The notes beneath the pieces were generated by a model that had not been told where the DNA came from, searched no databases, and was given only the letters and a program-made list of their open reading frames with translations. A stretch of DNA of 64,000 bases, taken from contig CBDCDZ010000004.1 in NCBI GenBank assembly GCA_965215565.1, positions 96,001 to 160,000 on the forward strand. Direction: 5' to 3'. The DNA is from Trueperaceae bacterium. Lineage in GTDB: Bacteria; Deinococcota; Deinococci; Deinococcales; Trueperaceae. The translations under genes were made by a program, and so were the position numbers. Below are positions 4,650 to 49,021 of the stretch, piece after piece; the first letter of the stretch is position 1; every line of letters starts with the position of its first letter.

Positions 4650-4918
4650 ATACCCTTTCCGGTTAATTCCTAAAGGAATTAACCCGAGTAAAGAGTCTTC
4701 AACCGATGGTAATATCAACGAATAGCCAGTACGAGCCATTTACAACGGCATGATACGCAGTCGCGTGGACCCTAGAACGGGCAAAGCCCGCCCCGTTGGG
4801 GCTAGTTCGCTCCCGCTAGCGGTTGAGGACTCTCTAACGAGCAGAAACAAGTACGGATTCCGATGATAGCGGAATCAACTCTGCAAGAGTTTATGCAGCA
4901 ATCAATCGGAATCCGTAT
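4650..4918 (-). repeat. Structured repeat family B (TACGGATTCCG...CCGGAAA) copy 1
   Basis: Reverse-complement homolog of 48723-49021; several internal hairpins (TTAATTCCTAAAGGAATTAA; GATTCCG...CGGAATC). Confidence 0.75.
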
Positions 4919-5027
4919 AACCCCACTGCTAAGCTAAAAGGGTACGCCTGTAATACCAAAGTGATTTAAGGGTGTCACAACGTGACATCCTTAAACGCTC
5001 GTACCCCCTGCGGGGTGCTCCCACTTG

Positions 5028-5087
5028 ATGAGCGTAACTTCGAACGCCCACACATTGTGACACCCCCTTTTCAGTCTGGTATAAGCT
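5028..5087 (+). promoter_or_regulatory. Conserved promoter-like element shared with the ureA upstream region
   Basis: 46/51 nt identical to reverse complement of 32977-33027, followed by TATAA in both. Confidence 0.6.
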
Positions 5088-5150
5088 ATTCTGAAATGCG
5101 ACGATGAATCTTTACAGCAGTGAGAAATTCGGGTAAAGTCTAGACCTCTT

Positions 5151-5164
5151 TGCATACGTATTCT
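5151..5164. promoter_or_regulatory. Putative LacI-family operator
   Basis: TGCATACGTATTCT: CG-centred imperfect palindrome just upstream of the RBS of an operon that encodes a LacI regulator. Confidence 0.4.
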
Positions 5165-5182
5165 AGCTCGAAAGGAGCGCAC

Positions 5183-5803
5183 GTGGACAGCATCAAAACA
5201 GACCCAGCAACCAGCCCGATGGAGGGGCGCGTCGCCCGCTTCGCTGAGCTTAAAAAGCGCGGCACGCCGCTTATGTTCATCGACAGCATCCTAGAGGGTC
5301 ACCAGCGGATGAACTACGCCCTGATCGGCGACACCGCCAGCGAAAACGACCACTACGATCCCCTCATTACCGCGCCGCACGGCTTCCAAGTCGGCATCGT
5401 CAAGGCGAAGCCGGGCAACGGTCCCGCGTACCACACGCACGACTACGTCGAGGCGTTCATGCCGCTCAAAGGTAAGTGGCGCTTTTATTGGGGCGAAGAG
5501 CCCGACAAGGTGGATGACGACACCATCATCGAAGAGTGGGACCTGATTTCGCTCCCGCCGAAGCTCTGGCGCGGCTTTGAAGTCTTGGACGATACCAATA
5601 ACAGTGGCGCAGAGGGTTGGATTTTGGGCATTTTAGAGGAACACAAGGTCTTTTCAGGTAAAGACCCCTACTGGGCTCCGCAGGTCATCCGCCAAGCCGC
5701 CGAGCAGGGCTTCGACGCGGATGATTCGGGCAAGATGATTAAGCCCAAGCACTACGAGGAGTTGGAGCGCCAAATGCGCGAAAAGTTGGATAGCGACGCT
5801 TGA
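5183..5803 (+). CDS. Cupin-domain protein
   Basis: PGNGPAYHTHDYVEAFMPLKGKW cupin motif 1 and LISLPPKLWRGF motif 2; AAGGAG RBS before GTG. Confidence 0.82.
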   Translation: MDSIKTDPATSPMEGRVARFAELKKRGTPLMFIDSILEGHQRMNYALIGDTASENDHYDPLITAPHGFQVGIVKAKPGNGPAYHTHDYVEAFMPLKGKWRFYWGEEPDKVDDDTIIEEWDLISLPPKLWRGFEVLDDTNNSGAEGWILGILEEHKVFSGKDPYWAPQVIRQAAEQGFDADDSGKMIKPKHYEELERQMREKLDSDA

Positions 5804-6492
5804 GTGACGTGAAACAACCTCTTGTATTACTCCCCGGAACCCTCTGTGACGAACATCTGTGGGCGCATCAGGTGAAGCACTTAGCGGATATAGCGGAGAT
5901 ACATTTTGGCGACCTCTCCAAGAGTTCGTCTGTTGTGAATGTAGCAGGGGATGTTCTAAAGAATGCACCGGATGAATTCGCTCTAGCAGGGCACTCGATG
6001 GGCGCAATTATTGCCTTTGAAATTATGAGGCGAGCGCCGGAGCGCGTCACTAAGCTCGCCATCTTGAGCGGCAACGCGAGAGGTTCGACGCCTGCGAATT
6101 TTGAAACGTGGAACACCTGGGAAGAGATGACGCGCTCGGGGCGTTTTGAAGAGGTCTTAGAGGCGCTGACAAACTGGACGCACCGAGACGATTCACTTCT
6201 CCACTCCGTCATCAAGCTCATGGGACAGCGCGTCGGTGAGGAGGCGTTTTTGAAGCAGTTGGATACGCTGAGGAGCCGCGAAGACCGCCGCGAGATGCTC
6301 CCTGAGATCGAGTGTCCGACGCTGCTCATTGTAGGGCGGAGCGACCCGGCGACGCCCGTCGAACTCCACGAAGAGATCAAAGAGAGGATGCTCCAAGCCG
6401 CGCTCGTCGTGGTTGAAGAGTGTGGGCACTACAGTATGCTCGAGCAACCCGTCACTGTCACTAGCGCGTTGCGGACTTGGTTGGTGAACTAG
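5800..6492 (+). CDS. Alpha/beta hydrolase
   Basis: GHSMG nucleophile elbow, PTLLIVG..D, CGHYS. Confidence 0.9.
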   Translation: MSDVKQPLVLLPGTLCDEHLWAHQVKHLADIAEIHFGDLSKSSSVVNVAGDVLKNAPDEFALAGHSMGAIIAFEIMRRAPERVTKLAILSGNARGSTPANFETWNTWEEMTRSGRFEEVLEALTNWTHRDDSLLHSVIKLMGQRVGEEAFLKQLDTLRSREDRREMLPEIECPTLLIVGRSDPATPVELHEEIKERMLQAALVVVEECGHYSMLEQPVTVTSALRTWLVN

Positions 6493-6507
6493 ATGCGGGT
6501 AAATTGA

Positions 6508-7294
6508 ATGAGACGCAACCTCTTAAAACAAGCCTTCGAACGTGGCGACTCCGTATTGAACGGTTGGCTCCACATCCCCTCGTCTATCAGCGCCGAGGTG
6601 ATGGCGCACGCAGGCTTCGACAGCCTCACGGTGGACATGCAGCATGGGCTCAGCCACTTCGAGAGCGCCGTGCCGATGTTTCAGGCGATTTCGACGACGG
6701 ACACCGTCCCGCTTGGCCCGCGTGCCCTGGAACGAGCCCGGCATCATCATGAAGCTCTTAGACGCGGGCTGTTACGGCGTCATCTGCCCGATGATCAACA
6801 GCGCAGACGAGGCGGCGGCGTTCGTGGGCGCGTGCCGCTATCCACCACACGGCTACAGGAGTTATGGACCGACGCGGGCGTCACTCTATGCGGGGTCAGA
6901 CTACGCCGCAAATGCGAACGAAGAGGTTTTGACCTTGGCGATGATTGAGACAGAGGCAGGGTTGGAGAACCTGGAAGAAATCGTCCAAGTTCCTGGTTTA
7001 GACGCGGTTTACGTTGGCCCGGCGGACTTGAGCCAGAGCTTAGGTGGCAAGCCCGGCGCAGATTTCGAAGAGGGTCCGGTAGTGGAAGCGTTAGAGCGTA
7101 TCGTTAAAGTCGCCCGTGAGCATAACGTCGTCGCTGGACTTCACAATAATTCGACAAAGTACGCAAAAAAGATGATCGACATGGGCTATCAGTTCGTCAC
7201 CGTGGAAACCGACATTCGGCTCTTGTCAGGTGCAGCGAGGAGGATTGTAGGCGAGGTAAAAGTCGAGCAGGAAGCATCAAAAGCAAGCTATTAG
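6508..7294 (+). pseudogene. HpcH/HpaI-family aldolase, split by a +1 frameshift near 6713
   Basis: N-part (GFDSLTVDMQHG) in ORF 6508.., C-part (ARVPWNEPG, MIET, VGPADLS) in ORF ..7294. Confidence 0.85.
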
Positions 7295-7437
7295 CCGCCC
7301 ATAGAAACAGGGAGCAAGAAGATAAGGGCAGTACTGCAAGCACTACGACTTAGCGTCTCAGATATTTCCTGACGAGCTGAAATGCTGACTAGCTAATACC
7401 TGTAAACCATCCAAATTCCATACAAGGAGGAAGGCAG

Positions 7438-8724
7438 ATGAAGTACATCAAAGAAGGCATGAGCGTCGAAGAGCGCGAGACCATCAGTGACGACGTACAG
7501 GAGAAGGTCAAAGGTCTCCTCGCAGACGTTAAGAAGCGCGGCGACGAGGCGGTGCGCGAGTTATCAGACAAGTTCGACAACTACACGCCCGAGAGCTTCC
7601 TCTTGTCGCAAGAGGAGATCGACGAGGCGACGGAACAGGTTTCAGAGGAGGAACTGAACGCCATCAAGTTCTCCTTAGAGCAGGTGCGCACTTTCGCTAA
7701 AGCCCAGCGTGACTCCATCAAAGACATCGAAGTCGAAACGCGCCCCGGCGTTACGCTCGGTCACAAGAACATCCCGATGAACGCGGTGGGCTGCTACATT
7801 CCTGGCGGACGCTACCCGATGATCGCCTCTGCAATCATGAGCATCGCCACGGCGAAAGCGGCGGGTGTAAAGCGCGTGGTGGCGTGTACGCCGCCAAAAG
7901 ACGGCAAACCCTACCCCGCAACCGTCGCGACGATGACCCTAGCCGGAGCCGATGAAATCTACGTCCTTGGCGGTGTCCAGGCGATGGCGGCGATGGCGCT
8001 CGGCACGGAAGCGATTGAGCCTGTGGATTTCCTAGTCGGACCGGGCAACGCCTTTGTCGCGGAGGCGAAGCGGCAGCTTTTCGGCAAAGTGGGCATCGAC
8101 CTCTTAGCAGGACCGACGGAAATTCTCGTCATTGCGGACGAAACCGCCGACGCGGAGATGGTGGCGACTGACCTCTTAGGACAAGCGGAGCACGGGACGA
8201 ACTCGCCCGCCGTCCTCCTGACGAGCAGTGAAGACCTCGCAAACAGCATCCAAGCGGAAATCGACAAGCAGTTAGAAACCCTCCCCACCGCCGAGGTCGC
8301 CGGAAAAGCCTGGCAGGATTACGGGCAGATTATCCTCGTTGATAGCGATGAAGAACTCGTGGAGCAGGCGGACATCCTCGCCTCGGAGCACGTCGAGATT
8401 TTGACCCGCGACCCCGACTACTTCCTAGAGCACATGACCAACTACGGCTCGCTCTTCTTGGGACCGGAAACGAACGTCGCGTACGGCGACAAGACCATCG
8501 GCACGAACCACATCCTACCGACAGGCAAGGCGGCGCGGTATACGGGCGGGCTCTGGGTTGGCAAATATCTCAAGACGGTGACCTACCAAAAGTGCACGCC
8601 CGAAGCGAGCGTAGAAATCGGCGAGAACTGCGCGAAAATCTGCGAAATTGAGGGGTTTGAGGGGCACAAGAAGCAAGCCGAGTTGCGCGTGGAGCGGTAC
8701 GGGAAGGCGCTCGAGAAGGCGTAG
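7438..8724 (+). CDS. Histidinol-dehydrogenase-family NAD dehydrogenase (HisD/HpsN-like paralog)
   Basis: [49 protein letters not shown] motifs; catabolic rather than his-operon context. Confidence 0.88.
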
Positions 8725-8736
8725 AGAAAAGAGAAA

Positions 8737-8860
8737 AGGACTGATCGGCTTGCCTGTCGCGCGTGGCGCGCTCCCGCTAGCAGCGAAGCTGAGGACTGAG
8801 AAAGAGATTTTTACTCAGTCCCTCCGCTCTGCGGAAACTTCGTAACAGCACTCAGTCCTT
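8737..8860. repeat. GGACTGAG/CTCAGTCC hairpin repeat family C with inserted modules
   Basis: 8810-8860 is a reverse-complement homolog of 28319-28368. Confidence 0.65.
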
Positions 8861-8873
8861 TCCTCTCATCATC

Positions 8874-9878
8874 ATGAAAAGGCATTCCTCCAAACGCATC
8901 ACCTCAACCGACGTCGCCCGCGCCGCAGGCGTCTCCCAATCCGTCGTCTCACGCGCCTTTGATCCCAACGGCAAAGTGGCTGCGCAGACAAGAACACACG
9001 TTTTAGAGGTTGCCAAACGCTTAGGCTATCAACCTAACATCTACGCCCGCAGCCTCGTCATGCAAAAAGCGAGTATCGTCGGCATCATCGTCGGCAACTT
9101 GGAAAACCCTTTTTACCCGAGCGTCTTGATGCACTTTTCCGAGGCGTTGCAGCGGCAGGGGCGGCAGGTGCTTCTCTTTTCGACGAAGGACGAAGAAGAG
9201 GTTGGCAATGCCCTTCTACAAGCCCTCCAGTACCGAGTAGAAGCTGTGATTGTTACTTCGGTAACGTTGACCTCGAGCATCACTCAAATTCTCGAGAAAA
9301 GTCAAGTTCCCATCTTTCTCTTCAACCGTACATTAGAAAACGCCCCGCTTCCCTCAGTTTCGTGTGACAACGTCGCAGGCGGGCGGCTCGTCGCGGATAC
9401 GTTTTTAGAGGCAGGACATGAACGCTTCACTTTTATCGGCGGTACGCCCAATACTTCAACGAACAGGGATAGAAGACGCGGCTTCTTAGAGCGGTTACAA
9501 GAGGTCGGTGCGCCTTGTATCTCGGTAGAAGGAACATACAGCTACGACTGGGGTTATGAGGCGCTCGAGCAACTCTCAGAATTACCCGACGCTATCTTCT
9601 GCGCGAACGACATCATCGCGTTAGGTGTGCTCGACGCCTTACGTCTGGAAGAGGTGCGCGTGCCCGAAGAGGTTGCCGTCATTGGTTTCGACGACATCGC
9701 TGAGGCGCGGCGTCCTGCCTATTCGCTCACGACGGTTCGGCAGCCTGTGGGGGCGATGATTGAAGCGACGTTAGGGTTATTAGAGAAATCTACGCCTAAA
9801 ACCCAACTGCTAAGAGGTCAGCTCGTTGAGCGGGCTTCCTCGAGACCCGTCAAAGAGGTTGCAGGGGCAGTCCGGTGA
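8874..9878 (+). CDS. LacI-family transcriptional regulator
   Basis: TSTDVARAAGVSQSVVSR HTH; PDAIFCANDIIALG, VIGFDD, LTTVRQP. Confidence 0.95.
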   Translation: MKRHSSKRITSTDVARAAGVSQSVVSRAFDPNGKVAAQTRTHVLEVAKRLGYQPNIYARSLVMQKASIVGIIVGNLENPFYPSVLMHFSEALQRQGRQVLLFSTKDEEEVGNALLQALQYRVEAVIVTSVTLTSSITQILEKSQVPIFLFNRTLENAPLPSVSCDNVAGGRLVADTFLEAGHERFTFIGGTPNTSTNRDRRRGFLERLQEVGAPCISVEGTYSYDWGYEALEQLSELPDAIFCANDIIALGVLDALRLEEVRVPEEVAVIGFDDIAEARRPAYSLTTVRQPVGAMIEATLGLLEKSTPKTQLLRGQLVERASSRPVKEVAGAVR

Positions 9879-9923
9879 GTTCGTTATCCATTCGACTTAA
9901 AAAGGAAAAGAAGAGGTGAAAAC

Positions 9924-10676
9924 ATCAGCGTAGATTCGCAAGAAGGAAAAGTCGCCGTCGTCACAGGCGCGGCGGGCGGCATCGGCTCGTCCGTCACGAA
10001 GCGGCTGGCAGAGGCGGGTTACAGCGTTGTCTTAACGTACCGGAGTTCTCAGGAGGACGCGGAAGCGTTGGCTGAAAAGTTGCCGGGGGAGAATCACGCC
10101 GTCTTACCTCTTAGCGTGGGGGACAGCTCGAGCGCGAACTCCTTAGCCGAAGAGGTCAAAACTCGCTACGGCAGACTCGACCTCTTGGTGAATAACGCAG
10201 GCATGACCCGCTACGTTGCCCACGACGACCTGGACGGTTTAGACGACGAGCTTATCGACCAAGTGTTCCGCGTCAACTGGCGCGGCGCGTTCGCGTGTGT
10301 CCGTGCGTTTAAGGACTTGCTAATGGACGGTGACGGCGGTTTAGTCGTCAATATCTCATCCATCGCCGGAACGACGGGCGAAGGGAGCAACGTCGCCTAC
10401 TGCGCGTCGAAAGCAGCTCTCGATTCGATGACACGCTCGCTGGCGCGTGCTCTAGCGCCGCAGATTCGCGCCGTATCGGTTGCACCCGGGCTCGTCGAGG
10501 GCGACTACGCCAAGAAACTCGACCCCGAATGGCGGCAAGCGCAGATTGAGGACACCCCCCTTCGCCGCCTCGCCGAAGCGGAGGACGTAGCGAACGCCGT
10601 GCTCGCACTCGCCACCCTCTTACCTTTCACAACAGGAAACATCATCCACGTGGACGGCGGACGACCTCTTAGTTAG
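9924..10676 (+). CDS. SDR-family oxidoreductase (apparent ATC start)
   Basis: In-frame KVAVVTGAAGGIG upstream of the track ORF, NNAG, YCASK; GAGGTG RBS 5 nt before ATC at 9924. Confidence 0.88.
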   Translation: MSVDSQEGKVAVVTGAAGGIGSSVTKRLAEAGYSVVLTYRSSQEDAEALAEKLPGENHAVLPLSVGDSSSANSLAEEVKTRYGRLDLLVNNAGMTRYVAHDDLDGLDDELIDQVFRVNWRGAFACVRAFKDLLMDGDGGLVVNISSIAGTTGEGSNVAYCASKAALDSMTRSLARALAPQIRAVSVAPGLVEGDYAKKLDPEWRQAQIEDTPLRRLAEAEDVANAVLALATLLPFTTGNIIHVDGGRPLS

Positions 10677-10797
10677 GGCGGTGTACCACGTTTTGCGGAC
10701 GCAGTAAGACGACAACTGTAAAGAACGCAAGTCAGTCCTTGTGTAAGCACAAAACGGGACACCTTTTAGTCAGGTGTTGAGCAGTTAGGAGCTAAGT

Positions 10798-11994
10798 ATG
10801 AGCGACCAAAGCGCCCAAAACACGCAGAAGAAGTCGAAGAACCGTTCCTCAACCTCTTTAGTATCAAAAGGCGAAAAGTCCCTCTCGCCCTCCAAGATGC
10901 CCAGCGACTTCTCCATCTCGCTCGCAGCAAAGGGCGGCACCGACAACCTCCTCTACCCCACAGGTGAACGCCAACAGAGTATGCGCGGCTTCGAGGATAC
11001 GTATATCGACATCGTAGATTACATCGTCCGCATCACGCATAAAATCTGGGAGGAGAAGAGCGTCGGCTACATCTACGACACCTACGCGCACAACTCAAAA
11101 GTCACGGACGACTACGGCTTGCAGTATGGGCGCGACAAAATCGTGGCGGACACGCTCCACACGATTAACGCTTTTCCCGACGTGCGCCTCTTCGCCGATG
11201 AGATCGTTTGGGCGGGCGACGACGAGACGGGCTTTCGCACCTCGCACCGCTGCCTCATCATGGGGCACAACACGGGCTACAGCGTTTACGGTCCGCCGAC
11301 GGGACGCAAGGTGGCGGTCTGGTGCACCGCGGACTGCACCGTGAAAGAAAACGAAATCGTCGAGGAGTGGGTGATCTACAACAACTCGAGCCTCGTGACT
11401 CAACTCGGCTTGAACTTGCGCGAGCAGGCGCGGCGCTTGGGCAATGAGATGCAAGAGGACGTAAAAAACGGTCTAAACGATTTGGCGTTCGGCGAACCTG
11501 AAAGGCTTTTAGGACAGGGAAAACCGTCTCAGCTCGAGCCCCCCTCTGGCGCATTCGACGTAGACACCTTTCTACGCTACGCCTACCACACGGTCTGGAA
11601 CTGGCGAAAGCTCGACTTCATCAAAGAGGTCTACGCGCCCACCATGCGCTTCTTCGGTCCAACCGACCGCAAGCTCTACGGGCGCGGCGCGTACCAAACC
11701 TTCGTCCTCTCCCTCCTCGCTATGTTCCCCGATCTCTCCTTCAAGATTGACGACCTCTACTGGATGGGCAACGACGACGAGGGCTACTTGACCTCTTTGA
11801 GATGGAGCGTCGTCGGTACACACCGGGGTTACGGCGTCTACGGCAAACCGACGGGGCGGCGCGTGCACGTCTGGGGTGTCACGCAGCACGTGATTCGAGA
11901 GGGTGTGATTACGCAAGAGTGGATGCTCTTTAACGAGTTCGAGGTGATGCAGCAGCTTTTCCGGGATGAAGCGCTGAGTGAAATGGACGCTTAA
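10798..11994 (+). CDS. Tandem SnoaL-like (ester cyclase / NTF2 fold) protein 1
   Basis: Two repeats of AFPD...GHNTG/GTH.G...G.PTGR...EW. Confidence 0.82.
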   Translation: MSDQSAQNTQKKSKNRSSTSLVSKGEKSLSPSKMPSDFSISLAAKGGTDNLLYPTGERQQSMRGFEDTYIDIVDYIVRITHKIWEEKSVGYIYDTYAHNSKVTDDYGLQYGRDKIVADTLHTINAFPDVRLFADEIVWAGDDETGFRTSHRCLIMGHNTGYSVYGPPTGRKVAVWCTADCTVKENEIVEEWVIYNNSSLVTQLGLNLREQARRLGNEMQEDVKNGLNDLAFGEPERLLGQGKPSQLEPPSGAFDVDTFLRYAYHTVWNWRKLDFIKEVYAPTMRFFGPTDRKLYGRGAYQTFVLSLLAMFPDLSFKIDDLYWMGNDDEGYLTSLRWSVVGTHRGYGVYGKPTGRRVHVWGVTQHVIREGVITQEWMLFNEFEVMQQLFRDEALSEMDA

Positions 11995-12061
11995 CCGAGT
12001 AGCGAAGGTGGCGGAAAAGGGATCTATAAGGGGTTGATTTCTCAAATTAAAGTGCAAAAGG

Positions 12062-12255
12062 TAGCAGGTTACTTCGTAAAGCTCCGCGCAATCATCTGGT
12101 CAGCTTGGGCGAAGCCATTCCCGGAGGGAAACTTCGTAAGCGAAGCAACACTCTCACTAAAGAAACATCACTCTCACTAAAGAGAACATCGCTTAGCACG
12201 CACTTTCAGGGATGGTATCTGCGGAGAAGTGCAGCAACGATAAGTGGAACTGCTA
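12062..12255 (+). mobile_element. MITE-like family A copy with inserted modules
   Basis: TAGCAGGT[21-nt insert]ATCATCTGGTCAG[insert]...GGAACTGCTA. Confidence 0.75.
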
Positions 12256-12702
12256 AGGGTATAGGAAAGAGGACTCGAGCCTACCCCTCAGCAACTTCAG
12301 AACCGAGTATTACAACCCCAAAAAACGGGTGTATGTGGTCTAAGTGAATCATTACACTTGTTTTTGCAGTAACCTGAAGCACTATTCTCATAGACAAAGC
12401 CGCAAATGTGACGTAAGATGAAGCTGGGTTTGTAGGAGTGAGGGCTCGAGCGTCCGCTCGCTTCACAGCGTGAGTCTAAGGTGCAAGCTTGCAATGCAGA
12501 AGGATACAAACCGATATGGAGTTTATTTGCGCAATCTCTTCCCTAAATCATCACGCCCAATGAGCGAAAATCCAACTTTCGCTTCTGCAGTACATCCCAC
12601 AAAAAATAAATATCAATGTGGCATTTAACAGATGTATGTAGCAAACTGAATGCGGGCTACTAGACTAATACGGAAGTATAAATATTCAAGGAGTGGTATT
12701 TC

Positions 12703-13932
12703 ATGAAAGCCGACGAGGACACCCAGAAACAACCTGACCCCCATCACCAGCACGGGCATCACCAGCATGGGCATCATCAACATGGGCACTCTTCTTTTGA
12801 CGCGCGGTCCGTCCAGCCTGTATCCGACATGAGCAGCGCGGACATCAGCAAATTCATGGCGGGTTCACAAAAGGGTAAGTCGCACCCTCTCAAAGGTTTC
12901 GACGAGGACTATACTGACATTGTGGATTATATCGTTCGCAGCACCCATAAGATATGGGAAGAGAAGGGCATCGGGCTCATCTACACGCACTACCGCCACA
13001 ACGTCCTGATTCACACCTCAGACGGCATGACGTACGGGCGCGATAAGGTCATCGCCGACTCTATAAAGACGATGGCGGCATTTCCCGACGTGCGCCTCTA
13101 CGCCGACGATGTGATTTGGGCGGGCAACGACGAGGACGGCTTTCATTCCTCGCACCGCATCGTCTGGGTCGGGCACAATACGGGCTACAGCATCTACGGT
13201 CCACCCACCGGACGCAAGGTCGTGCGGCGCGGCGTCGCGCACTGTTTTGTCAAGGAAAACCGCATCATCGAGGAGTGGATTTCTAGGGATGAACTCGCGC
13301 TAGTCAGACAGCTCGGCTTCAATGAGTTCGACCTCGCCCGCAAGCACGCCGCGCAAGACGCCGCGAAGGGCATTAAAGGACCGGAGTCGCGTGCGCACGG
13401 CGAAGTCGAAAGGCTGTGGGGACAGAGTCCGCCCGAGTGGATGGAGCCCAAGCAGGGCGACGGCTTCGACGTCGAGGACTTCGTTGAGCGCAGCATCCAT
13501 GAAATCTGGAACTGGCGGCTGTTGGGGCGGGTGGGGCTGTACTACTCGAGAAACTATCTCTGCCACACCTCCACGAACCGCACGCTCTACGGCTTAGGCG
13601 ACTTCAAGGCGAATATCTTGGCGCTCCTAGCCGCCTTCCCCGACGCCGCCATGCGCGTCGACCACGTCTGCTGGCTCGGCAATGATGAGGAGGGCTACCG
13701 CGTCGCCACCCGCTGGACGCTGCAAGGCACCCACGACGGACCCGGCATGTACGGCGAGCCGACGGGTCAGCGCATCACGCTCATGGGCATCACGCACCAG
13801 GTGATTAAGGACGGCAAGTTCATCAAGGAGTGGACCGCGTTTGACGAATTTGCGCTCTTGAAGCAACTTTATTGGCCCAAGGATGAGTATGAGATGGAGC
13901 GGGCGTTGGGGCGGAGCGGGTTGCCGCTGTAG
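12703..13932 (+). CDS. Tandem SnoaL-like protein 2 with His-rich N-terminus
   Basis: Paralog of 10798-11994 (GF...Y.DIVDYIVR.THKIWEEK); (HHQHG)x3. Confidence 0.82.
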   Translation: MKADEDTQKQPDPHHQHGHHQHGHHQHGHSSFDARSVQPVSDMSSADISKFMAGSQKGKSHPLKGFDEDYTDIVDYIVRSTHKIWEEKGIGLIYTHYRHNVLIHTSDGMTYGRDKVIADSIKTMAAFPDVRLYADDVIWAGNDEDGFHSSHRIVWVGHNTGYSIYGPPTGRKVVRRGVAHCFVKENRIIEEWISRDELALVRQLGFNEFDLARKHAAQDAAKGIKGPESRAHGEVERLWGQSPPEWMEPKQGDGFDVEDFVERSIHEIWNWRLLGRVGLYYSRNYLCHTSTNRTLYGLGDFKANILALLAAFPDAAMRVDHVCWLGNDEEGYRVATRWTLQGTHDGPGMYGEPTGQRITLMGITHQVIKDGKFIKEWTAFDEFALLKQLYWPKDEYEMERALGRSGLPL

Positions 13933-14122
13933 AAGCAATTGCAAGAGGTCACAACTCTCTTGTGGCTGACAACCTGAGAAGACAAAAGGTAGAATAGGAA
14001 ACGCAGACGTTCGAGCTTCCCGTTCTACCTTTTACATTGTTTGTCTTACCCTTCGCCTCGAGTCAACTTGGACATAGCCTTTTAGACATAGCTCGAGTCC
14101 CTCACTGAGAGAGGAAACCACC

Positions 14123-15280
14123 ATGTCAAATCCAAACCAACCTTATGACGTGATCGTTATCGGCGTCGGTGGCATGGGCAGCGCCACCATCTATGAACTC
14201 GCTAAACGGGGGAAACGGGTGTTGGGGCTCGAGCGCTTCGACGTCCCCCACGACATGGGCTCCTCGCACGGCGTCAACCGCATCATCCGCTTAGCGTACT
14301 ATGAGGACCCCTCGTACGTACCGCTGATGAAGCGGGCGTATGAGCGCTGGCGCGAGTTGGAAGCGGACACGGGCGAGCAGATTTTGCACATCACGGGCTC
14401 GGTGGACGCGGGACCAGAGGATAACGAGGTCTTTAAGGGCTCGTATGAGTCGTGTCTCGAGCATGATATCCCCCACGAGGTTTTAGACCACCGCGAACTC
14501 CACGAACGTTTTCCCGGCTATCAGCTTCCAAGAGGTCACTACGCCTTATACCAAGAGGAGGGCGGCTTTCTGCTGTCGGAGCGGTGCATCGTCAACCACG
14601 TCGAGGCGGCGCTATCAAGAGGTGCAGAGGTGCAGGCGCGTGAGCAAGTCTTGGATTGGGAAACTAAGAGCGGTCACGTTACCGTGCGCACCGAGCGCGG
14701 CGCGTACGAAGCGGGCTCCCTCGTCATCACGGCGGGCGCGTGGGCGTCGCACCTTGTTCCAGGCTTGGGCAAGCGGGCGCAAGCGGAGCGGCAGGCGTTG
14801 GGCTGGTTTCAGCCGCATCAGCCCGAGCTGTTCTCACCCGAACGCTTCCCCGTCTTCAACCTCTTGGTGGATGAAGGGCGCTACTACGGCTTTCCGGTCT
14901 ACGGCGTGCCTGGCTTCAAAATCGGGCGTTACCATCACCTAGACGAACAAGTGAACCCCGATGAGGTGGATAGAGGTCTCTACGCCGCAGATGAAGAGGT
15001 CTTGCGCGACTGCGTGGCGAACTACTTCCCCGAAGCGAACGGTAGGGCGATGATGATGAAAACCTGCATGTTCACCAACAGCCCCGACGAGCACTTCATC
15101 ATCGGGACGCACCCCGAGCACGCCAACGTGAGCTTTGCGGCGGGCTTTTCGGGGCATGGGTACAAGTTTTGCAGCGTGGTGGGTGAGATGATGAGCGACT
15201 TGGCATTGCAAGGTGAGACGCCGCTGCCGATTGACCTCTTTGATCCGAAGCGGTATTTGGCAGCGGAGGAGGTAGTGTGA
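14123..15280 (+). CDS. Monomeric sarcosine oxidase / N-methyl-tryptophan oxidase family flavoprotein
   Basis: GVGGMG FAD motif, GSSHG..RIIR, CMFTNSPDEHF (covalent-FAD Cys region), GFSGHGYKF. Confidence 0.9.
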   Translation: MSNPNQPYDVIVIGVGGMGSATIYELAKRGKRVLGLERFDVPHDMGSSHGVNRIIRLAYYEDPSYVPLMKRAYERWRELEADTGEQILHITGSVDAGPEDNEVFKGSYESCLEHDIPHEVLDHRELHERFPGYQLPRGHYALYQEEGGFLLSERCIVNHVEAALSRGAEVQAREQVLDWETKSGHVTVRTERGAYEAGSLVITAGAWASHLVPGLGKRAQAERQALGWFQPHQPELFSPERFPVFNLLVDEGRYYGFPVYGVPGFKIGRYHHLDEQVNPDEVDRGLYAADEEVLRDCVANYFPEANGRAMMMKTCMFTNSPDEHFIIGTHPEHANVSFAAGFSGHGYKFCSVVGEMMSDLALQGETPLPIDLFDPKRYLAAEEVV

Positions 15281-15317
15281 TCACTTCGCCCCTTGAGCTT
15301 TGGAGTATGCTGTTAAT

Positions 15318-15518
15318 ATGAAAGTTCAAGTAACAAAAGAAGGCGTGACTATCCCTAAAGCCTTGCTTGAGGGCATCGACGCTGTTGAAATTCGCAAAGA
15401 GAACGATGTCATCACGGTTGTACCTCTTGCAGATGACCCTATTTTGGGACTCGGCAGTCAACCTGTTAAGGGCAACACCGCAGACGCCTCGGAGAATCAC
15501 GACGCTCACTTGTACTGA
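15318..15518 (+). CDS. AbrB/MazE-like antitoxin
   Basis: MKVQVTKEGVTIPK swapped-hairpin pattern; TGATG overlap with PIN gene; TATGCT -10 just upstream (leaderless). Confidence 0.75.
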   Translation: MKVQVTKEGVTIPKALLEGIDAVEIRKENDVITVVPLADDPILGLGSQPVKGNTADASENHDAHLY

Positions 15519-15937
15519 TGGAACCTGCTTTCATGGACACGGGTTATCTGTTGGCTTTGGAGCTAACGGATGATCAGCATCATCAAGCAGCGTCATCCCA
15601 CTGGAGTCAGATAAAAGCCGAATTACCACGTCTTGTAACGACCTCTTACGTTTTCGATGAGGTCGTTACGTTTTTCAATAGCCGAGGTTTACACGCTAAA
15701 GCGGTAGACGTAGGCAACCGACTTCTGAAAAGTCCTTCCGTTGATTTTATTCAGGTTGATAAAGAGCTTTTTGAAGTGGCTTGGCAGTACTTTCAAAGAC
15801 ACGAAGACAAAGCCTATTCGCTTACCGACTGTGTTTCTTTTGTCGTTATGAAACAGCGGGGTATTCGCACCGCTTTGGCATTCGATAAGCACTTTGTTCG
15901 GGCGGGGTTCGCTACGCTACCCAAAGATGAAGTCTAG
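15518..15937 (+). CDS. PIN-domain (VapC-like) toxin
   Basis: FMDT, DEVVT, YSLTDCVSF, AFDKHF acidic PIN residues. Confidence 0.9.
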   Translation: MEPAFMDTGYLLALELTDDQHHQAASSHWSQIKAELPRLVTTSYVFDEVVTFFNSRGLHAKAVDVGNRLLKSPSVDFIQVDKELFEVAWQYFQRHEDKAYSLTDCVSFVVMKQRGIRTALAFDKHFVRAGFATLPKDEV

Positions 15938-15997
15938 GAATGAAAGCTCGTTCCGATGCTTATAAACGCCGCCGCAAAAGGATAAGGAGGCATGAGG

Positions 15998-16168
15998 ATG
16001 AAGCAAAAGCAGAAGTTACCTGAAGGTTGGACCGAAGAGAGAATCAAGCGGGTGATTGACCACTACGAATCACAAACAGATGATGAAGCTATTGCTAAGG
16101 ACAAAGCGGCGTTTGCAGCCAAAGAAGAGCTTGTGCAAGTACCTATTGATGATGAGCATTTTTGCTGA
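15998..16168 (+). CDS. Small antitoxin-like hypothetical protein (56 aa)
   Basis: AAGGAGG RBS; MKQKQKLPEGWTEERIKRVIDHYESQTDDEAIAKD...; below ORF-track cutoff. Confidence 0.55.
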   Translation: MKQKQKLPEGWTEERIKRVIDHYESQTDDEAIAKDKAAFAAKEELVQVPIDDEHFC

Positions 16169-16177
16169 CAGAAAAAC

Positions 16178-16693
16178 TTACTCTAAATCCGCTTGTTGCT
16201 CGAGCAGATCACTGACGTATTCCCAAAGGTTGAATATCTCCAGCCTGGTTTCGAAATATTCCTCCGTAACGTTGTCGTGTTTGAGCGATAACAAAATAGT
16301 TTGAGCTGCTTGCATCTCATGTCTCAAGGCGTTGAGAGCCTTGATTCTAGCCAAATCTTCTTTACTCTTAGACGTTTCGACCATCTCAACGAGGGAGTTG
16401 GAAAGGTCTATAAGCTCCCGAGAAATTTCTCGGTAATCGTTTAGCAACTCTTCAACTTGCTGAGATTCATCGGGCGGAAGTTGATCGAGAGTGAGTGTTT
16501 GATACTCTTCTGTACTAAAGTGTCTCCTGATCTTCAAGAAGAGCGAATTGGCTCGAGCTGTGAAAAATATACCATTGAGCGTTTGTCGCTCGAGCTTGAG
16601 CAAAGTAAGTTGTGTGTCGCTTAGCTGGGCAAAGCTGGCAGAAGATAGAAAAATCGACGCAAGACACAAAATAGTAACCGATAGCTTTTTCAC
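16178..16693 (-). CDS. Hypothetical secreted helical protein, low GC
   Basis: GAGGAGG RBS, signal peptide MKKLSVTILCLASIFLSSASFA-Q. Confidence 0.65.
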   Translation of the reverse strand: MKKLSVTILCLASIFLSSASFAQLSDTQLTLLKLERQTLNGIFFTARANSLFLKIRRHFSTEEYQTLTLDQLPPDESQQVEELLNDYREISRELIDLSNSLVEMVETSKSKEDLARIKALNALRHEMQAAQTILLSLKHDNVTEEYFETRLEIFNLWEYVSDLLEQQADLE

Positions 16694-16799
16694 TTCTAAC
16701 AGCCTCCTCGGGGTTGCATTGCATCAACCTTAACTCCGCTTTCCACCGTGTCCTATTGAAAAATTTACTGCGAAGATTGCTAGCTGGTAACACTCAAGA

Positions 16800-16863
16800 A
16801 ACCGAACTTGAAACTTGCTCAAACCTGCAAGAGGCAGTTGAACTCGTACTCGAGGCGAACTAA
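16800..16863 (+). pseudogene. HicB-like antitoxin C-terminal remnant
   Basis: Translates to ...NLQEAVELVLEAN*, resembling the HicB helix; no start. Confidence 0.45.
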
Positions 16864-17151
16864 ACCCTTGCAAACCCCCAAGCAAGTATGTTCTAATTTT
16901 CCGATACCACTTTTTAAGCGGTAGCACTTATTCAGAGTAACCGAGGGACTTGGACCTGTGACGTTGCAGCAACCAGCTTTCATGTAAGCGGGTGCTTCAT
17001 CTAACTTTGCTGTCCAAGCATGGCTGACATTAAAGCTGGAATTTCTTCGTGGTAGACAATTCATTCGTTAGCTGGTACAATCTTTGAGCTTAAACCGGGC
17101 TACGTTTCCAATAGGCAACCCGGTTTTCGCGCATCGGATACGTTAATCCTT

Positions 17152-17238
17152 GCCGGGATGGCGGAATCGGTAGACGCAACAGACTTAAAATCTGTCGGGC
17201 GAAAGCCTGTGCGGGTTCAAGTCCCGCTCTCGGCACCA
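17152..17238 (+). tRNA. tRNA-Leu(TAA)
   Basis: GCCGGGA/TCTCGGC acceptor stem, ACAGA-CTTAAAA-TCTGT anticodon arm, long variable arm, GGTTCAAGTCC, encoded CCA. Confidence 0.97.
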
Positions 17239-17258
17239 CGTCAGGGATGTGAAAAGGT

Positions 17259-17297
17259 GAGGAAAACGGCGAGCTTTAGAAGCTCGCCGTTTTCCTC
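17259..17297. terminator. Hairpin terminator after tRNA
   Basis: GAGGAAAACGGCGAGCTT-TAG-AAGCTCGCCGTTTTCCTC perfect stem. Confidence 0.75.
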
Positions 17298-17395
17298 GCT
17301 TGTGCGCCGCTTGTATGCCCAACCTTTCGCTACGTGCCTCTCGGCGGTGTGCCTACTTTGCTACTTCACGTTAGGGGAATCGACGACAGGCGTAT

Positions 17396-17570
17396 TAGCA
17401 GGTATCATCTGGTCGGAGACGCTCTCACTATACGAAGCACCGTTTAGCATACACATTCTGAGATGATACCCTTGCCGGTTATGAAATTTTTGCGGATGCG
17501 AAAGGCAAAACTTCGTCCCTACGGGCTTTCAGAAAGCGACATTTTGTCTCAGTGTTTTGTGGAACTGCTA
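17396..17570 (+). mobile_element. MITE-like family A copy with a central insert
   Basis: TAGCAGGTATCATCTGGTC...GTGGAACTGCTA. Confidence 0.75.
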
Positions 17571-17763
17571 TGTGAAGTGAGCTGTCTTGTGGTGAGGGTG
17601 CTGTCCAAAGCAAAAAAGGCTATAGGGGTGTATCTTCGCCCACGACTTCAGAACGCCCTTGACCTCGGTGCAGTGGCGGCGCGGAACTCTGGGTGGCGCT
17701 GCCCAAGCTCGGCGTCAGCGTTTAGTCGAAGAATGAGGTTGAGGCGTTAGCCTAACTTAGCGC

Positions 17764-20043: not shown

Positions 20044-20246
20044 AGCGGTATTGTCCTCGCTGGATTTGAAGATGCAACGGCAGGGCGGCTGCCCGTTTGC
20101 GTCGCCCTCCTCCGGGAGAAGGCTACCTCCAGCTCAAGGCTCTTTTCCGTGCACACTTGAAGCTGCTGTAGCAGCTTCAAGTGTGCGCGCTACTATTACG
20201 AGTTACTAAATGGGCAATAGCACAGAGGGTCTATCCTGCGCGCAGT

Positions 20247-26638: not shown

Positions 26639-26793
26639 TAGCAGTTCCACAACATATTGAGACAGTTGAGCGCAGATATCATCCCTTGAAGTGCGTGCTA
26701 GTTACGCAAGTTTGCTGCCTAGCAACATCGTTTTACAAAGTGCGAGTATTTCTGACCAGATGATTGAGCGAAGCTATACGAAGTAACCTGCTA
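26639..26793 (-). mobile_element. MITE-like family A copy
   Basis: Reverse complement of family A; very similar to 34830-34961; 21-nt insert shared with 12062 copy. Confidence 0.8.
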
Positions 26794-28269: not shown

Positions 28270-28318
28270 AGATTTTCCTCCTCTTTGAAAGTGCGTTCAG
28301 TAATCATCTAGTATTGGA

Positions 28319-28412
28319 AGGACTGAGTGCTGTTACGTAGTTTCTGCGTAGCAGAGGGACTGAGTAGTTGAAAACCCCCGTAGGGAGAAAAGATTTTACC
28401 TCAGTCCTTTTC
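28319..28412. repeat. Repeat family C copy
   Basis: GGACTGAGTGCTGTTACG...GAGGGACTGAGTA...CTCAGTCC. Confidence 0.65.
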
Positions 28413-30382: not shown

Positions 30383-32100
<1,718 letters not shown>

Positions 32101-33053: not shown

Positions 33054-33328
33054 CAGCAGTTCCACTTATCGTTGCTTGAGTGCAACTATGCGAAGCAACA
33101 CTTCTCCGCAGATTTCACAGCTTTGCTGTAACGGAACTTCATCCCTGAACGTGCGTGCTAGGCGATGTTCTTTTTAGTGAGAGCGTCTCTTCGCTTACGA
33201 AGTTTCCCTTTCGCCTTTAAAAGCGAACGGTTTTCAACCGTAACCTGTGCGAAAACGGCGTAACCGGGAATGGCTTCGCCCAAGCTGACCAGCTCCGAGC
33301 TTTGCGAGACAGACTTTGATACCTGCTA
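33054..33328 (-). mobile_element. MITE-like family A copy, most expanded (275 bp)
   Basis: Family A ends with several nested inserts. Confidence 0.72.
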
Positions 33329-34829: not shown

Positions 34830-34961
34830 TAGCAGGTATCATCTGGTCAGAGACACTCGCACTTTGTAAAACGATGTTTCCTGCGGAAAACTGCGTAACT
34901 AGCACGCACTTCAAGGGATGATATCTGCGCTCAACTGTCTCAATATGTTGTGGAACTGCTA
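34830..34961 (+). mobile_element. MITE-like family A copy
   Basis: TAGCAGGTATCATCTGG...GGAACTGCTA. Confidence 0.8.
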
Positions 34962-36533: not shown

Positions 36534-36645
36534 TAGCAAGTATCATTTGGTTTGGGCCAATCTGAGAAGAGAAAACACGCTTTAGCACGCACTTAATTGT
36601 GATGATACTTGCGTGATTCAAGCTCAGTACTTATGTTAATTGCTA
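36534..36645 (+). mobile_element. MITE-like family A copy, divergent with compensatory changes
   Basis: TAGCAAGTATCAT...ATGATACTTGC...TTGCTA. Confidence 0.75.
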
Positions 36646-42802: not shown

Positions 42803-42936
42803 TAGCACTTCCAAAATATACTGAGACAGACGAATGCAGACATCATCTCATAATGTGCGTGCTAAACACCACTTATTATAGTAAGAGTGTTTCAGACCAG
42901 TTCTGAGCTTTGCGAGACAGACTTTGATACCTACTA
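42803..42936 (-). mobile_element. MITE-like family A copy
   Basis: Carries GAGCTTTGCGAGACAGACTT insert shared with 33054 copy. Confidence 0.75.
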
Positions 42937-45589: not shown

Positions 45590-45722
45590 AGCGGTTATTA
45601 GAAGTACTGAGCTTGAATCACGCAGATATCATTCCTTAAAGTGCGTGCTGCTTACGCAGTTTTCACACAGTGAAACGATGTTTTATCTCGTGAGATTGGC
45701 TCAAACCAGATGGTACCTGCTA
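45589..45722 (-). mobile_element. MITE-like family A copy
   Basis: ...CCAGATGGTACCTGCTA; closest to 36534 copy. Confidence 0.72.
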
Positions 45723-46939: not shown

Positions 46940-46942
46940 CGG

Positions 46943-48181
46943 ATGACGCTTCCCAGAGACAGCCGCCCGAACAGCACCCTAGCCCTCCTGCGCCGCCCCT
47001 ACACCTTTATCTCCGAAGGATGCGAGCGCCACCACAGCGACGTGTTCGAAACCCGCTTGCTTTTGCAGCCTTTCACCTGTATGCGCGGCAAGGAGGCCGC
47101 TAGGCTCTTCTACGACACCTCGCGCTTTAGGCGTTCAGGCGTCGCACCAGGGCGGGTGCAGAAGACGCTCTTCGGACAGGGCGGCGTGCAGGGCTTAGAC
47201 GGCGAGGTTCACAAGCGCCGCAAGGCGATGTTCATGTCGCTGATGACGCGAAAGAAGATTCAGCGGCTCGTGCAGATTACCGAGGGAGCGTGGCGCGAGG
47301 CGGCGGCGCGGTGGGAGCGGCAGGGCGAGGTCGTGCTCTTCTACGAGGTGCGCGAACTTCTGTGCTGCGCGGTGTGCACCTGGGCCGGTGTCCCCCTCCT
47401 AGAAGCCGAAGTGAAGAGAAGAACGGACGACTTCGGCGCGATGATCGACGGCGCGGGCGGGGCCGGACCGAGGCATTGGCGCGGCAGGCGGGCGCGGCAG
47501 AGGGCAAACCGGTGGATTGAAGGGATTATCGCCGAGGTGCGCGCTCGCAGGCTCGAGCCCCCCAAAGGCAGCGCCCTCGCCGTCGTCAGTTGGCACCGCG
47601 ACCTGAGCGGGGCGTTGCTAGAAGGGCGTGTGGCAGCGGTTGAACTCATCAACGTGCTGCGGCCCGTCGTCGCGGTGGACCGCTACATCGCGTTCACGGC
47701 GCTGGCGCTCTTTGAACACCCAGGGAGCTGGGTGAGGCTGAGGACCGAGGCGGACGGCCTCGAGTTCGTCCAGGAGGTGCGCCGCGTCTACCCCTTTTTT
47801 CCCTTTGTCGCCGCGCAGGTAAAGCGCGACTTCGAGTGGCGGGGCTACCCCTTTCCTGCAGGGCGCAAGGTGCTCCTTGACCTCTACAGTACCAACCGCG
47901 ACCCTCGCGTGTGGCGGGAGCCAGAGGCGTTCCAGCCCGAACGCTTCCGCACGTGGGACGGGAGCGCTTACAACTTCATCCCGCAAGGCGGCGGCGATCA
48001 CTTCGAAAACCACCGCTGCGCTGGAGAGTGGATCACGATTGCCCTTATGAAAGGGGCGCTAGACTTCTTGACCGGGTCGCTGCGCTACACCGTGCCGGAG
48101 CAGGACTTGAGCGTCAACTTGTCGAGACTGCCCGCCGTGCCGACGAGCCGCTTCGTCATCCGCGAGGTGCGGCGGGTTTAA
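46943..48181 (+). CDS. Cytochrome P450, CYP152 (fatty-acid peroxygenase) family
   Basis: LINVLRP (Arg-Pro), EVRRVYPFFP, HRCAGEWIT. Confidence 0.9.
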   Translation: MTLPRDSRPNSTLALLRRPYTFISEGCERHHSDVFETRLLLQPFTCMRGKEAARLFYDTSRFRRSGVAPGRVQKTLFGQGGVQGLDGEVHKRRKAMFMSLMTRKKIQRLVQITEGAWREAAARWERQGEVVLFYEVRELLCCAVCTWAGVPLLEAEVKRRTDDFGAMIDGAGGAGPRHWRGRRARQRANRWIEGIIAEVRARRLEPPKGSALAVVSWHRDLSGALLEGRVAAVELINVLRPVVAVDRYIAFTALALFEHPGSWVRLRTEADGLEFVQEVRRVYPFFPFVAAQVKRDFEWRGYPFPAGRKVLLDLYSTNRDPRVWREPEAFQPERFRTWDGSAYNFIPQGGGDHFENHRCAGEWITIALMKGALDFLTGSLRYTVPEQDLSVNLSRLPAVPTSRFVIREVRRV

Positions 48182-48183
48182 TA

Positions 48184-48294
48184 TAGCAGGTATCATCTGG
48201 TCAGAAACACGCTCACTATAGAAAACACTGTTTAGCACGCACGTTCAGGGATGATGCCTGCGGCACTTCGTCTTAGTATGTCGTGGAATTGCTA
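48184..48294 (+). mobile_element. MITE-like family A, minimal copy
   Basis: 111 bp, colinear with 957-1067. Confidence 0.8.
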
Positions 48295-48327
48295 ACCCAT
48301 GTATTCAGTACTTAAAGGGGGCTAAAG

Positions 48328-48705
48328 ATGACAAAACCGTTAGGACATAAACGTTGGGCCATCGCCGAGGGCTACATCCCGAGCTGGAGCCACGGCCCGG
48401 AGCCGGAACTGGCGAGCCACGAGACTGCGTGTTTGCTCAATACCTCGGACAAGGAGGCGCACGTCGAGATCACGCTCTACTTCGCGGAGCGCGAGCCTGT
48501 CGGTCCCTACCGCGTCACCGTGCCGCCGAGACGCACCTTGCACTTGCGCTTGGATGAACTGGGGGACCCCGAACCCGTGCCGAGAGACACCGACTACGCG
48601 AGCGTTTTAGAGTCGGACGTGCCCGTCGTGGTGCAGCATAGCCGCCTCGACTCCCGTCAGGCCGAGAACGCCCTGCTTTCGACAGTGGCGTACAGCGAAG
48701 GTTGA
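48328..48705 (+). CDS. Sensory rhodopsin transducer (ASRT) family protein
   Basis: WAIAEGYIP, SHETACLLN, VVVQHSRLDSRQAENALL. Confidence 0.9.
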   Translation: MTKPLGHKRWAIAEGYIPSWSHGPEPELASHETACLLNTSDKEAHVEITLYFAEREPVGPYRVTVPPRRTLHLRLDELGDPEPVPRDTDYASVLESDVPVVVQHSRLDSRQAENALLSTVAYSEG

Positions 48706-48722
48706 GCAGTCACGACTGAGTA

Positions 48723-49021
48723 ATATGGATTCCGGTTGATTACTGCATAAACTCCGTTATGAAATTTTGCTTCCAGCAAACGCTTCGCGCTTCTACGGAG
48801 ACGGAGTTGATTCCGTGCTCACCGGAATCCGTACTTTTTCATCTCGCAAGAGAGTCCTCAGCGAGAGGTATCGTTACGGGCAGGCCGCCCTGCCGTTGCA
48901 TCTTTCAATCTACGCGCGTAGATAACGGCTCAGTGTGCAGTCGCGTGGACCGCTCCCGCTAGCTGCTGAGGACTCTTCTCCGCTCGGGGTAATTCCTACG
49001 GGAATTACCCGGAAACCGTAT
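48723..49021 (+). repeat. Structured repeat family B copy 2
   Basis: ATATGGATTCCGG...GGTAATTCCTACGGGAATTACCCGGAAACCGTAT. Confidence 0.75.

Follow-up and report, generated by a model that had tools for sequence, protein, structure and literature searches.

The 64,000-nt window analysed here (G000:C4:96001-160000, in a Trueperaceae genome, G000, of 4.49 Mb and 99.99% completeness) carries copies of three repeat families, A, B and C, and within and beside them a set of very short hairpin-forming modules. An earlier note on this DNA had proposed that 20–55-nt units, shared across unrelated repeats, form a system of very small mobile elements. We show that modules of about 17–30 nt insert precisely and repeatedly in one genus of the family. 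The carriers are three genomes of this genus, namely G000, G001 and G002 (the last 97% complete), and the public records with these repeats are labelled Trueperaceae.

Family A is a non-coding 111-bp element with the ends TAGCAG...CTGCTA, present in G000 as 490 elements, 462 of them near full length. It was also found in two genomes of the same genus and in one other family member, and not in 37 further relatives. As for its character as a miniature inverted-repeat transposable element (MITE), TA ends are favoured by the profile, while the alignments of empty sites are too diverged to reveal a TA duplication; no IS630 with ends matching family A was seen. Comparison of the copies with their consensus gave 575 inserts of at least 10 nt, a count that takes in alignment noise at the ragged 3′ ends. 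Of these, 269 measure 21–25 nt and the longer ones cluster at multiples. Hot spots lie at core positions 8, 11, 23, 48–50, 68–69 and 73–76, and at least one module occupies 215 of the 490 elements, with a maximum of nine. The hairpin repeats of families B and C are smaller and have themselves grown by nested inserts. A second MITE (103–104 nt, TAAGTA...TACTTA-like ends) was observed at core position 48 of family A in the copies at G000:C4 3126784, 3659042 and 4098755.

Eight module families were defined by pattern from the family A inserts and peeled genome-wide, inner modules first. A genome-wide repeat decomposition had been proposed in the earlier note; the peeling yielded 562 modules on contig C4 (F5 188, F1 134, F2 103, F6 37, F3 33, F7 32, F10 28 and F8 7), compared with 17 on the reversed sequence that served as a control. 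A few percent of the catalogue are false positives, and some variants as well as at least four further small families escape it. Lengths of 21–25 nt were found for 474 of the modules, F6 being mostly 17 nt, and 414 lie inside family A matches; 77 surfaced only once inner modules had been peeled. No match to the modules was obtained in Rfam and no module was detected on the small contigs C1–C3; C3 has a period of ~11 kb and looks like the assembly of roughly two tandem copies of one small plasmid or prophage.

The recurring units pointed out previously could be assigned to these families. GAGCTTTGCGAGACAGACTT, reported from the family A copies at 33054 and 42803, is located at 33297 and 42905 and belongs to F3. 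CTTGGGCGAAGCCATTCCCGG occurs at 12104 (+) and 33264 (−) and GGAAACTTCGTAAGCGAAG at 12127 (+) and 33189 (−), the unit at 12104 being an F2 that holds an F5. TACTTCGTAAAGCTCCGCGCA, claimed for the copies at 12062 and 26639, is exact only at 12070; a 3-base variant of it is found in the 26639 copy (both F2; 12070 and 26765). These first three examples, each one module at one site, are insufficient alone for sharing across unrelated repeats, because all of them come from family A. Such sharing is demonstrated by the remaining three: GTTATGAAATTTT, an inverted F5, at 17478 in family A and 48756 in family B; CGCTCCCGCTAGC, an F10, at 4808, 8769 and 48951; and AAGATGCAACGGCAGGGCGGC, at 20069 (+) and 48884 (−), both F7. 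All six motifs quoted in the earlier note are present and the small units are real, whereas those of 40–55 nt proved to be nested composites.

To examine precision, the flanks of modules were joined and the resulting empty alleles sought. They were found, often by the hundreds, and almost none remained when the junction was shifted by 3 nt. The F5 copies fall into 48 context clusters, 16 of which have an empty allele, or into 38 distinct contexts under a stricter pattern, and these contexts share only ~CGT^. No target duplication was seen at modules. One identical 27-nt background hosts five different F5 hairpins, and the family A copies at 34830 and 26639, 97% identical over 75 nt, yet carry different F5 hairpins at the same site. 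Among core pairs of at least 97% identity, 106 of 151 differ in their module set. Near-site mismatches per pair of a carrier and its nearest empty sister amounted to 0.41 and 1.59 vs. 1.09 and 1.96 in the controls, where empties were compared with one another; for F1 the value was 1.9 vs. 1.4, the junction base accounting for 1.0 (41/41). Flanks are not dragged along with the modules, the F1 junction base apart.

Empty alleles were found in sister copies, where the earlier note had proposed to look for them, and also in sister species. G001 was read over 1.6 of the 4.58 Mb of its chromosome and G002 over 0.4 Mb, so that ortholog counts are lower bounds. The aligned parts of G000 and G001 (1.6 Mb of G001) share a mean identity of 83%. 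Both flanks were syntenic for 35 of the 62 family A copies in this part of G001; 16 of these have family A in G000 too, 11 in the same orientation. Six of the 11 orthologous pairs differ by exact module(s) and have the degenerate core in common, one of them judged at the left junction only. Among the other five, two show wider differences, two lack modules in both genomes, and in one pair F2 is present on both sides but its hairpins are not the same. An unbiased survey of 943,606 aligned columns revealed 58 clean indels of 14–70 nt, five of which fit catalogue patterns, including F7. Contigs assembled from three read runs on window positions 4000–23900 have joints explicable by paralogous MITEs; one that joins 17470 to 17536 may likewise be a paralogue.

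Insertions were also observed in coding DNA. In G000 a single-copy hicA-like gene (G000:C4:643126-643365) has an F5 of 24 nt inserted in frame, whereas the gene is empty in G002 and G005; compared with G002, the G000 gene also lacks 2 nt near its 3′ end. The IS630 transposases of G000 and G001 hold, in frame, a composite of 66 nt that includes F10. This composite is identical at 65 of 66 positions between the two genomes while the surrounding elements are only 81% identical; an empty IS630 allele exists, and the same 66-nt composite recurs in an unrelated context in G001. Composites of up to 66 nt move as one unit. The gains are recent and repeated, and the same site was gained independently by different hairpin variants. 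Descent from a long ancestral repeat is refuted by the orthologous, hicA and near-identical-core comparisons: confinement to one subfamily through vertical inheritance, which the earlier note had named as the contrary outcome, is not what we see, as modules lie in unrelated hosts and genes and have precise empty alleles. An 88-aa open reading frame (ORF) has another in-frame F5 close to its end (G000:C4:3663906); its G001 homologue is too diverged there for an empty-site comparison.

On one strand, F2, F5 and F6 read as two tandem mini-hairpins, and F1 and F3 as a bulged hairpin with a tail. Stems are free in sequence yet paired: among 88 F5, 47 F1 and 30 F2 distinct variants most keep an intact stem of at least 3 bp. 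Main loops are of the G..A type in 27/28 distinct F2, 34/43 F1 and 5/6 F6 variants, and the F5 tail loop is GNA in 86/106 cases vs. 180/2756 background triloop hairpins. The F1 tetraloops showed no GNRA preference (7/18). The nuclease-resistant DNA mini-hairpin is formed only by GNA triloops, resists exonuclease, and has RNA counterparts that are much less stable (PMC13037366). The combination of paired stems and G..A loops on one strand suggests selection on one DNA strand.

The 3′ end of the GNA strand adjoins a target A. For F2 the right flank, which the search pattern did not impose, was AC in 99 of 103 copies. In F1, F10 and F3 the target A is lost in a one-base replacement. None of the 104 filled copies at the main F1 site has A, and 102 have C or T, whereas A stands at 395 of the 407 unfilled sites and C or T (scar alleles) at four, indicating that the filled state is derived and that modules rarely leave. 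F1 occupies both homologous arms with the same one-base change. Target choice was evident for two families: F2 carriers have A at +1 in 40/40 cases vs. 147/215 empties (p = 2e-6), the C allele never being occupied, and F5 carriers have T at −1 in 52/52 cases vs. 142/203 empties (p = 2e-7). Targets often lie in or beside hairpins. One-base replacement as a rule for every module was considered and dropped, as the hicA insert, F2, F5, F6 and F7 read as blunt insertions; one F5 cluster, an exception within its family, carries an extra base at the junction.

The expansion is confined to one genus among the 121 family genomes searched. The F5 tail occurs in 116, 69 and 88 copies in the three genus genomes (88 in G002) and in at most 11 copies in the 118 other family genomes; G056 was counted only in this tally and in that of RAYT-type genes. 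In 81 cyanobacterial-order genomes the F5 tail was at background level, with no enrichment, and F10 matches came from Trueperaceae only (18/18 loci). The F5 pattern, with 20 fixed bases, was found at five loci outside the family vs. ~1 expected, several of them beside other GNA hairpins. The genomes concerned show no expansion (1–9 tails vs. 0–6 in the control) and the neighbours are housekeeping genes; we regard these loci as a weak hint of cross-phylum spread. Single F5-like modules amid other GNA mini-hairpins were noticed in Acidimicrobiales, Spirochaetaceae and Clostridia records. Spread of F2 to foreign genomes was rejected (16 matches vs. ~17 expected, many in coding DNA). Four viral scans gave 0, 0, 1 (chance-like) and 0 matches, and a plasmid BLAST returned nothing meaningful.

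At about even confidence, we favour an enzyme-catalysed, site-specific transfer of a folded single strand, a copy-in at the level of the lineage in which the 3′ end of the module is joined to the target A. The GNA strand would be copied or peeled out as single-stranded DNA (ssDNA) and be protected by its mini-hairpins. A protein recognising the mini-hairpin and tail would nick the single-stranded target 5′ of A, whereupon the module 3′-OH would be joined to the target A and the 5′ end to the left flank, in an HUH-like strand transfer. Replication would fix the insert, the donor site staying filled. MITE A would passively amplify the modules and offer hundreds of fresh targets, and the hairpin-rich modules may serve as targets for one another, which would lead to nesting.

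The earlier note had suggested looking for reverse transcriptases (RTs) or RAYT nucleases. Neither is supported as the common mover, RTs being found in one and RAYT in two of the three carriers, the latter with a separate REP family. Among HUH families the search covered Y1 and gave two candidates in G000: a domain within a methyltransferase, and a RAYT of 173 aa that is free-standing. The latter was missed by the Pfam Y1 scan, recovered with a custom profile, and is 78% identical in G001. Its gene (G000:C4:3590032-3590553, −) lies between mutS and mutL, overlaps both, and has an in-frame GTAG-type REP. This RAYT is the only HUH candidate we have for the module mover, and a doubtful one. Modules were absent from the Y1-domain region and from within 60–80 nt of either REP family, and none was seen in the RAYT flanks. 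The other candidate is a Y1/RAYT-like domain of ~170 aa. Together with REP-derived peptides it is inserted, without loss of frame, into a restriction-modification methyltransferase-like ORF of 1322 aa (G000:C4:3784710-3788675, −); its REP family counts 85–89 copies, and a similar long frame exists in G014. An HUH motif regex gave two irrelevant matches. Sixteen ORFs with modules on both sides were tried as an enzyme source and set aside, being ordinary genes or an IS1-like remnant by inspection.

Several results weigh against the transfer of a folded strand by a dedicated enzyme. The one-base loss in F1, F10 and F3 is unlike a clean HUH transfer, no transfer intermediate was observed, and F7, which inserts at G^C or G^A, falls outside the target-A rule. 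The A of F5 and the AC of F6 at the junction were partly imposed by the search patterns, and are confirmed where empty alleles exist. Loop preference is not uniform: of 77 variants of the F5 main loop only 21 are G..A (14 are A..A and 10 T..C), and the 2-bp stems of F3 are below the resolution of the stem/loop test. No replichore strand bias was seen for MITE A (248:242) or for most families, the skew being weak and the copies not independent, as also applies to the 28:9 counts of F6. Fitch changes on the MITE tree, which speak for repeated gains, numbered 31, 42 and 32 for 40, 52 and 51 carriers, respectively, with shuffled means of 38, 48 and 47, and are biased upwards because the 111-column core tree is poorly resolved; they lie at or below the shuffled minimum at two of three sites, and values below the shuffled means suggest that some copies were inherited with the MITE. 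As regards the enzyme, the RAYT was not found in G002, with its 88 F5 tails, 10 genomes of the family that show no F5 expansion also have RAYT-type genes, and the RAYT has a different REP family with no module within 80 nt. E. coli TnpA-REP cuts C^T (PMC3479197), whereas the modules join at N^A. No enzyme candidate fits all three carriers.

An explanation without a dedicated enzyme is short-patch gene conversion or oligonucleotide capture, which we consider unlikely. Nuclease-resistant ssDNA comprising a module and its flanks would be annealed at the fork, by the single-strand annealing of the host, to a homologous empty MITE, and rare microhomology jumps would seed new contexts. The predominance of one MITE family among the hosts, the identical one-base change of F1 on both homologous arms and the exonuclease resistance of mini-hairpins agree with such a process, as does the fact that F2 or F5 pairs with the same variant are more similar close to the site than at a distance. 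It does not account for flank mismatches beside filled sites that are not in excess, for insertions in single-copy hicA and in IS630 without donor homology, or for 38 distinct F5 contexts with so little in common.

Rather improbable, in our view, is polymerase template switching, by which a stalled nascent strand would switch, at 2–4 nt of microhomology, to a module elsewhere, to be copied before its return, with quasi-palindrome correction compensating the stems. Module ends that are constant across many contexts and an expansion limited to a single genus argue against it; moreover, strand-asymmetric G..A loops need one-strand selection, which switching does not supply. One-base junction changes in three families, targets in or next to hairpins, and the lack of a dedicated enzyme found in all three carriers would be in keeping with it.

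A small GIY-YIG ssDNA nuclease, of the Ssn type or another, might make nicks that direct copying, with host repair to follow; we judge this very unlikely. Ssn nucleases cut ssDNA site-specifically beside hairpin repeats, and what is shown for them is cleavage, not insertion (PMC11893778). The modules resemble the NTS/SRM repeats of that system in being ssDNA hairpin repeats with a directional tail and one-strand reading (PMC11893778), and a few SRM-like repeats in G000 hold F5. Yet the GIY-YIG genes detected in G000 were only a YhbQ-like 91-aa gene, a UvrC-sized one and one weak match (G001 and G002 were not scanned whole), so that no Ssn-type gene was found there, and no nuclease-like gene in G000 is flanked by modules. 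The 91-aa gene is present in module-free relatives too and has no module beside it.

For an RNA intermediate with reverse transcription, which we judge highly improbable, one may cite some G-T wobbles in the F1 junction pairings and the group II intron-sized RTs of G001; RVT_1 is absent from G000 and G002, and the loops are of the DNA type. Mobilisation by resident IS110 bridge recombinases is extremely improbable. All three carriers have IS110, which in G000 inserts at the MITE A hot spot of the modules and in G002 into a host repeat. IS110 duplicates a 2-nt core (TC), which the modules do not, its donor-like non-coding RNA guides match its own ends and not modules, and no bridge RNA donor loop fitting a module junction was seen; furthermore, a 21-bp double-stranded circle is sterically implausible. 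In G000 seven near-identical IS110 copies occupy one site in MITE A (C4 638769, 681682, 1227066, 1291047, 2530254, 3106148 and 4135944). The left non-coding end contains guide-like stretches that match target and donor, and the circle junction would give a TTGACA-18-TATATT promoter; a different IS110 in G002 sits in the element enclosing family B. Finally, that nothing is mobile and the modules are remnants of a long ancestral repeat after deletion has almost no probability, for although module presence partly tracks the MITE tree, the gain in hicA is outgroup-polarised, unfilled F1 sites have A and not C or T, and modules lie in unrelated hosts.

The closest parallel is with the small dispersed repeats (SDRs) of cyanobacteria. 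SDR1–8 were reportedly described by Elhai et al. in 2008 from Nostoc punctiforme and relatives, and are said to be confined to Nostocales-type cyanobacteria. They reportedly form several families of 21–27 nt, nested in MITEs and in themselves, with compensated hairpins (compensatory changes in SDR4–6). To our knowledge, how elements of this size move has been open since 2008; our literature searches found no paper explaining it and no description of such modules in Deinococcota. The modules studied here resemble SDRs in size (507 of 562 are 21–27 nt), in forming eight families, in precise insertion with empty alleles, in nesting within MITEs and other modules, and in hairpin stems kept through variants; they differ in belonging to another phylum.

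SDR5 is described as inserting exactly between the third and fourth base of HIP1 (PMC4390886). We found a 23–25-nt twin-GNA module that splits HIP1 in 150 kb of a Nostoc punctiforme plasmid and in 5 of 41 cyanobacterial-order genomes, with ATC on the 3′ side in 10/10 cases and ATCGC in 8/10; it is called SDR5 by match to the published target rule, not to a published consensus. The analogy drawn in the earlier note was borne out here, as this module shares with ours the twin-GNA build and the junction rule. One F2 variant shares with it an identical 12-nt core, GCGAAGCCATGC, at a score reached by 0/200 shuffles (F5 2/200, F1 5/200, no match for other families). Common ancestry is suggested and not shown by these scores, because shared GNA motifs inflate them; judged from sequence, F2 may be kin to SDR5. 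The Trueperaceae modules differ from SDR5 in targeting ^AC or [A]TC, and in that three families delete the target A. HIP1 is not in excess in G000 (41 vs. 39.9 expected), and 0 of 562 modules lie in a HIP1 site.

Other systems are less similar. Like REP/REPIN sequences with their RAYT (PMC3116915, PMC3479197), the modules are short, non-autonomous ssDNA hairpins without target duplication, and both G000 and G001 have a RAYT gene. They lack the unit of GTAG guide and palindrome, as well as doublets, F1 and F10 carrying CTAG, and their junctions are N^A (F2, F5, F6), a replaced A (F1, F3, F10) or G^C/A (F7), not C^T. IS200/IS605 elements (IS608, ISDra2) share with them an ssDNA intermediate, two hairpins and no duplication (PMC6006769, PMC3479197). 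The modules are ~50 times smaller, have no transposase gene and show no lagging-strand bias, and on the hairpin strand the target bases that they conserve are found 3′, not 5′, of the joint. By the tests run, the system is SDR-like in Trueperaceae and not a member of SDR5, REP/RAYT or Ssn/SRM. What is new, with the SDRs compared by their general description, are the lineage, the number of families, and the strand, junction and one-base-loss rules.

The features of the window are collected in Table 1. Two further observations concern its urease genes: a 76-nt direct repeat (97% identity, 29020–29095 and 29816–29891) inside the urease accessory region, and an Rfam match to 5_ureB_sRNA at 31648–31958, antisense within the urease alpha gene.

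Table 1. Host repeats and modules in the 64,000-nt window (window coordinates).
Feature	Position	Strand	Modules and remarks	Basis
Family A MITE	957..1067	+	empty 111-bp core, TAGCAG...CTGCTA ends	
F10 module	4760..4819	-	CTAGCGGGA-hairpin-GAC, with further nested hairpin inserts; upstream of family B core	sequence reading
Family B core	4846..4921	+	TACGGATTCCG...CGGAATCCGTA	
Family C repeat	8736..8860	+	AGGACTGA...TCAGTCCT	
F10 module	8756..8780	-	inside family C; adjoins F1-like hairpin	
F5 module	8824..8845	+	inside family C; hairpin and AACTNCGTAA tail	
Family A MITE	12062..12255	+	modules at core positions 8 and 23	
F2 module	12070..12090	-	twin-GNA; core position 8 of family A MITE 12062..12255	
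F2 module	12106..12147	+	F5 (12119-12139) nested between its two mini-hairpins	
Family A MITE	17396..17570	+	65-nt three-layer composite at 17471-17535: outer F5; inverted F5 (~17479-17502, GTTATGAAATTTT unit); F6 (17517-17533)	
F7 module variant	20075..20096	+	truncated or split by further insert; outside family A	
Family A MITE	26639..26793	-	F5 (26702-26724) and F2 (26765-26785)	
Family C repeat	28318..28409	-	F5 (28333-28354)	
Family A MITE	33054..33328	-	heavily nested: F3 (33295-33317); layers F2 > F5 > inverted F5; F1-type module; F2 near 3′ end	
Family A MITE	34830..34961	+	F5 (34878-34898)	
Family A MITE	36534..36645	+	empty	
Family A MITE	42803..42936	-	F3 (42903-42925)	
Family A MITE	45590..45722	-	F5 (45652-45674)	
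Family A MITE	48184..48294	+	empty	
Family B core	48720..48839	-	GAAGCGCGAAGCG insert, which holds F5 (48757-48778)	
F7 module	48872..48898	-	27 nt; in element enclosing family B	
F10 module	48940..48962	-	in element enclosing family B	

The modules may tentatively be placed in a cross-phylum class of smallest transposons. These would be ssDNA units of 17–27 nt, with the types of Deinococcota (F2) and cyanobacteria (SDR5) related and moved by one kind of GNA-recognising enzyme, possibly the RAYT as domesticated in the mutS–mutL operon or a core host enzyme, joined 5′ of a target A without duplication and able to carry nested cargo of at least 66 nt. The genus gives a large, young and well-polarised set for the study of such elements, with hundreds of copies, target rules, orthologous empty sites and in-frame gene insertions. 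It also gives a strand and junction rule common to the Trueperaceae modules and the cyanobacterial module. The question becomes open to assays with defined oligonucleotides and few candidates. If a dedicated enzyme exists, its chemistry, the insertion of very short cargo as ssDNA, would be new, and proteins would gain small in-frame insertions from it.

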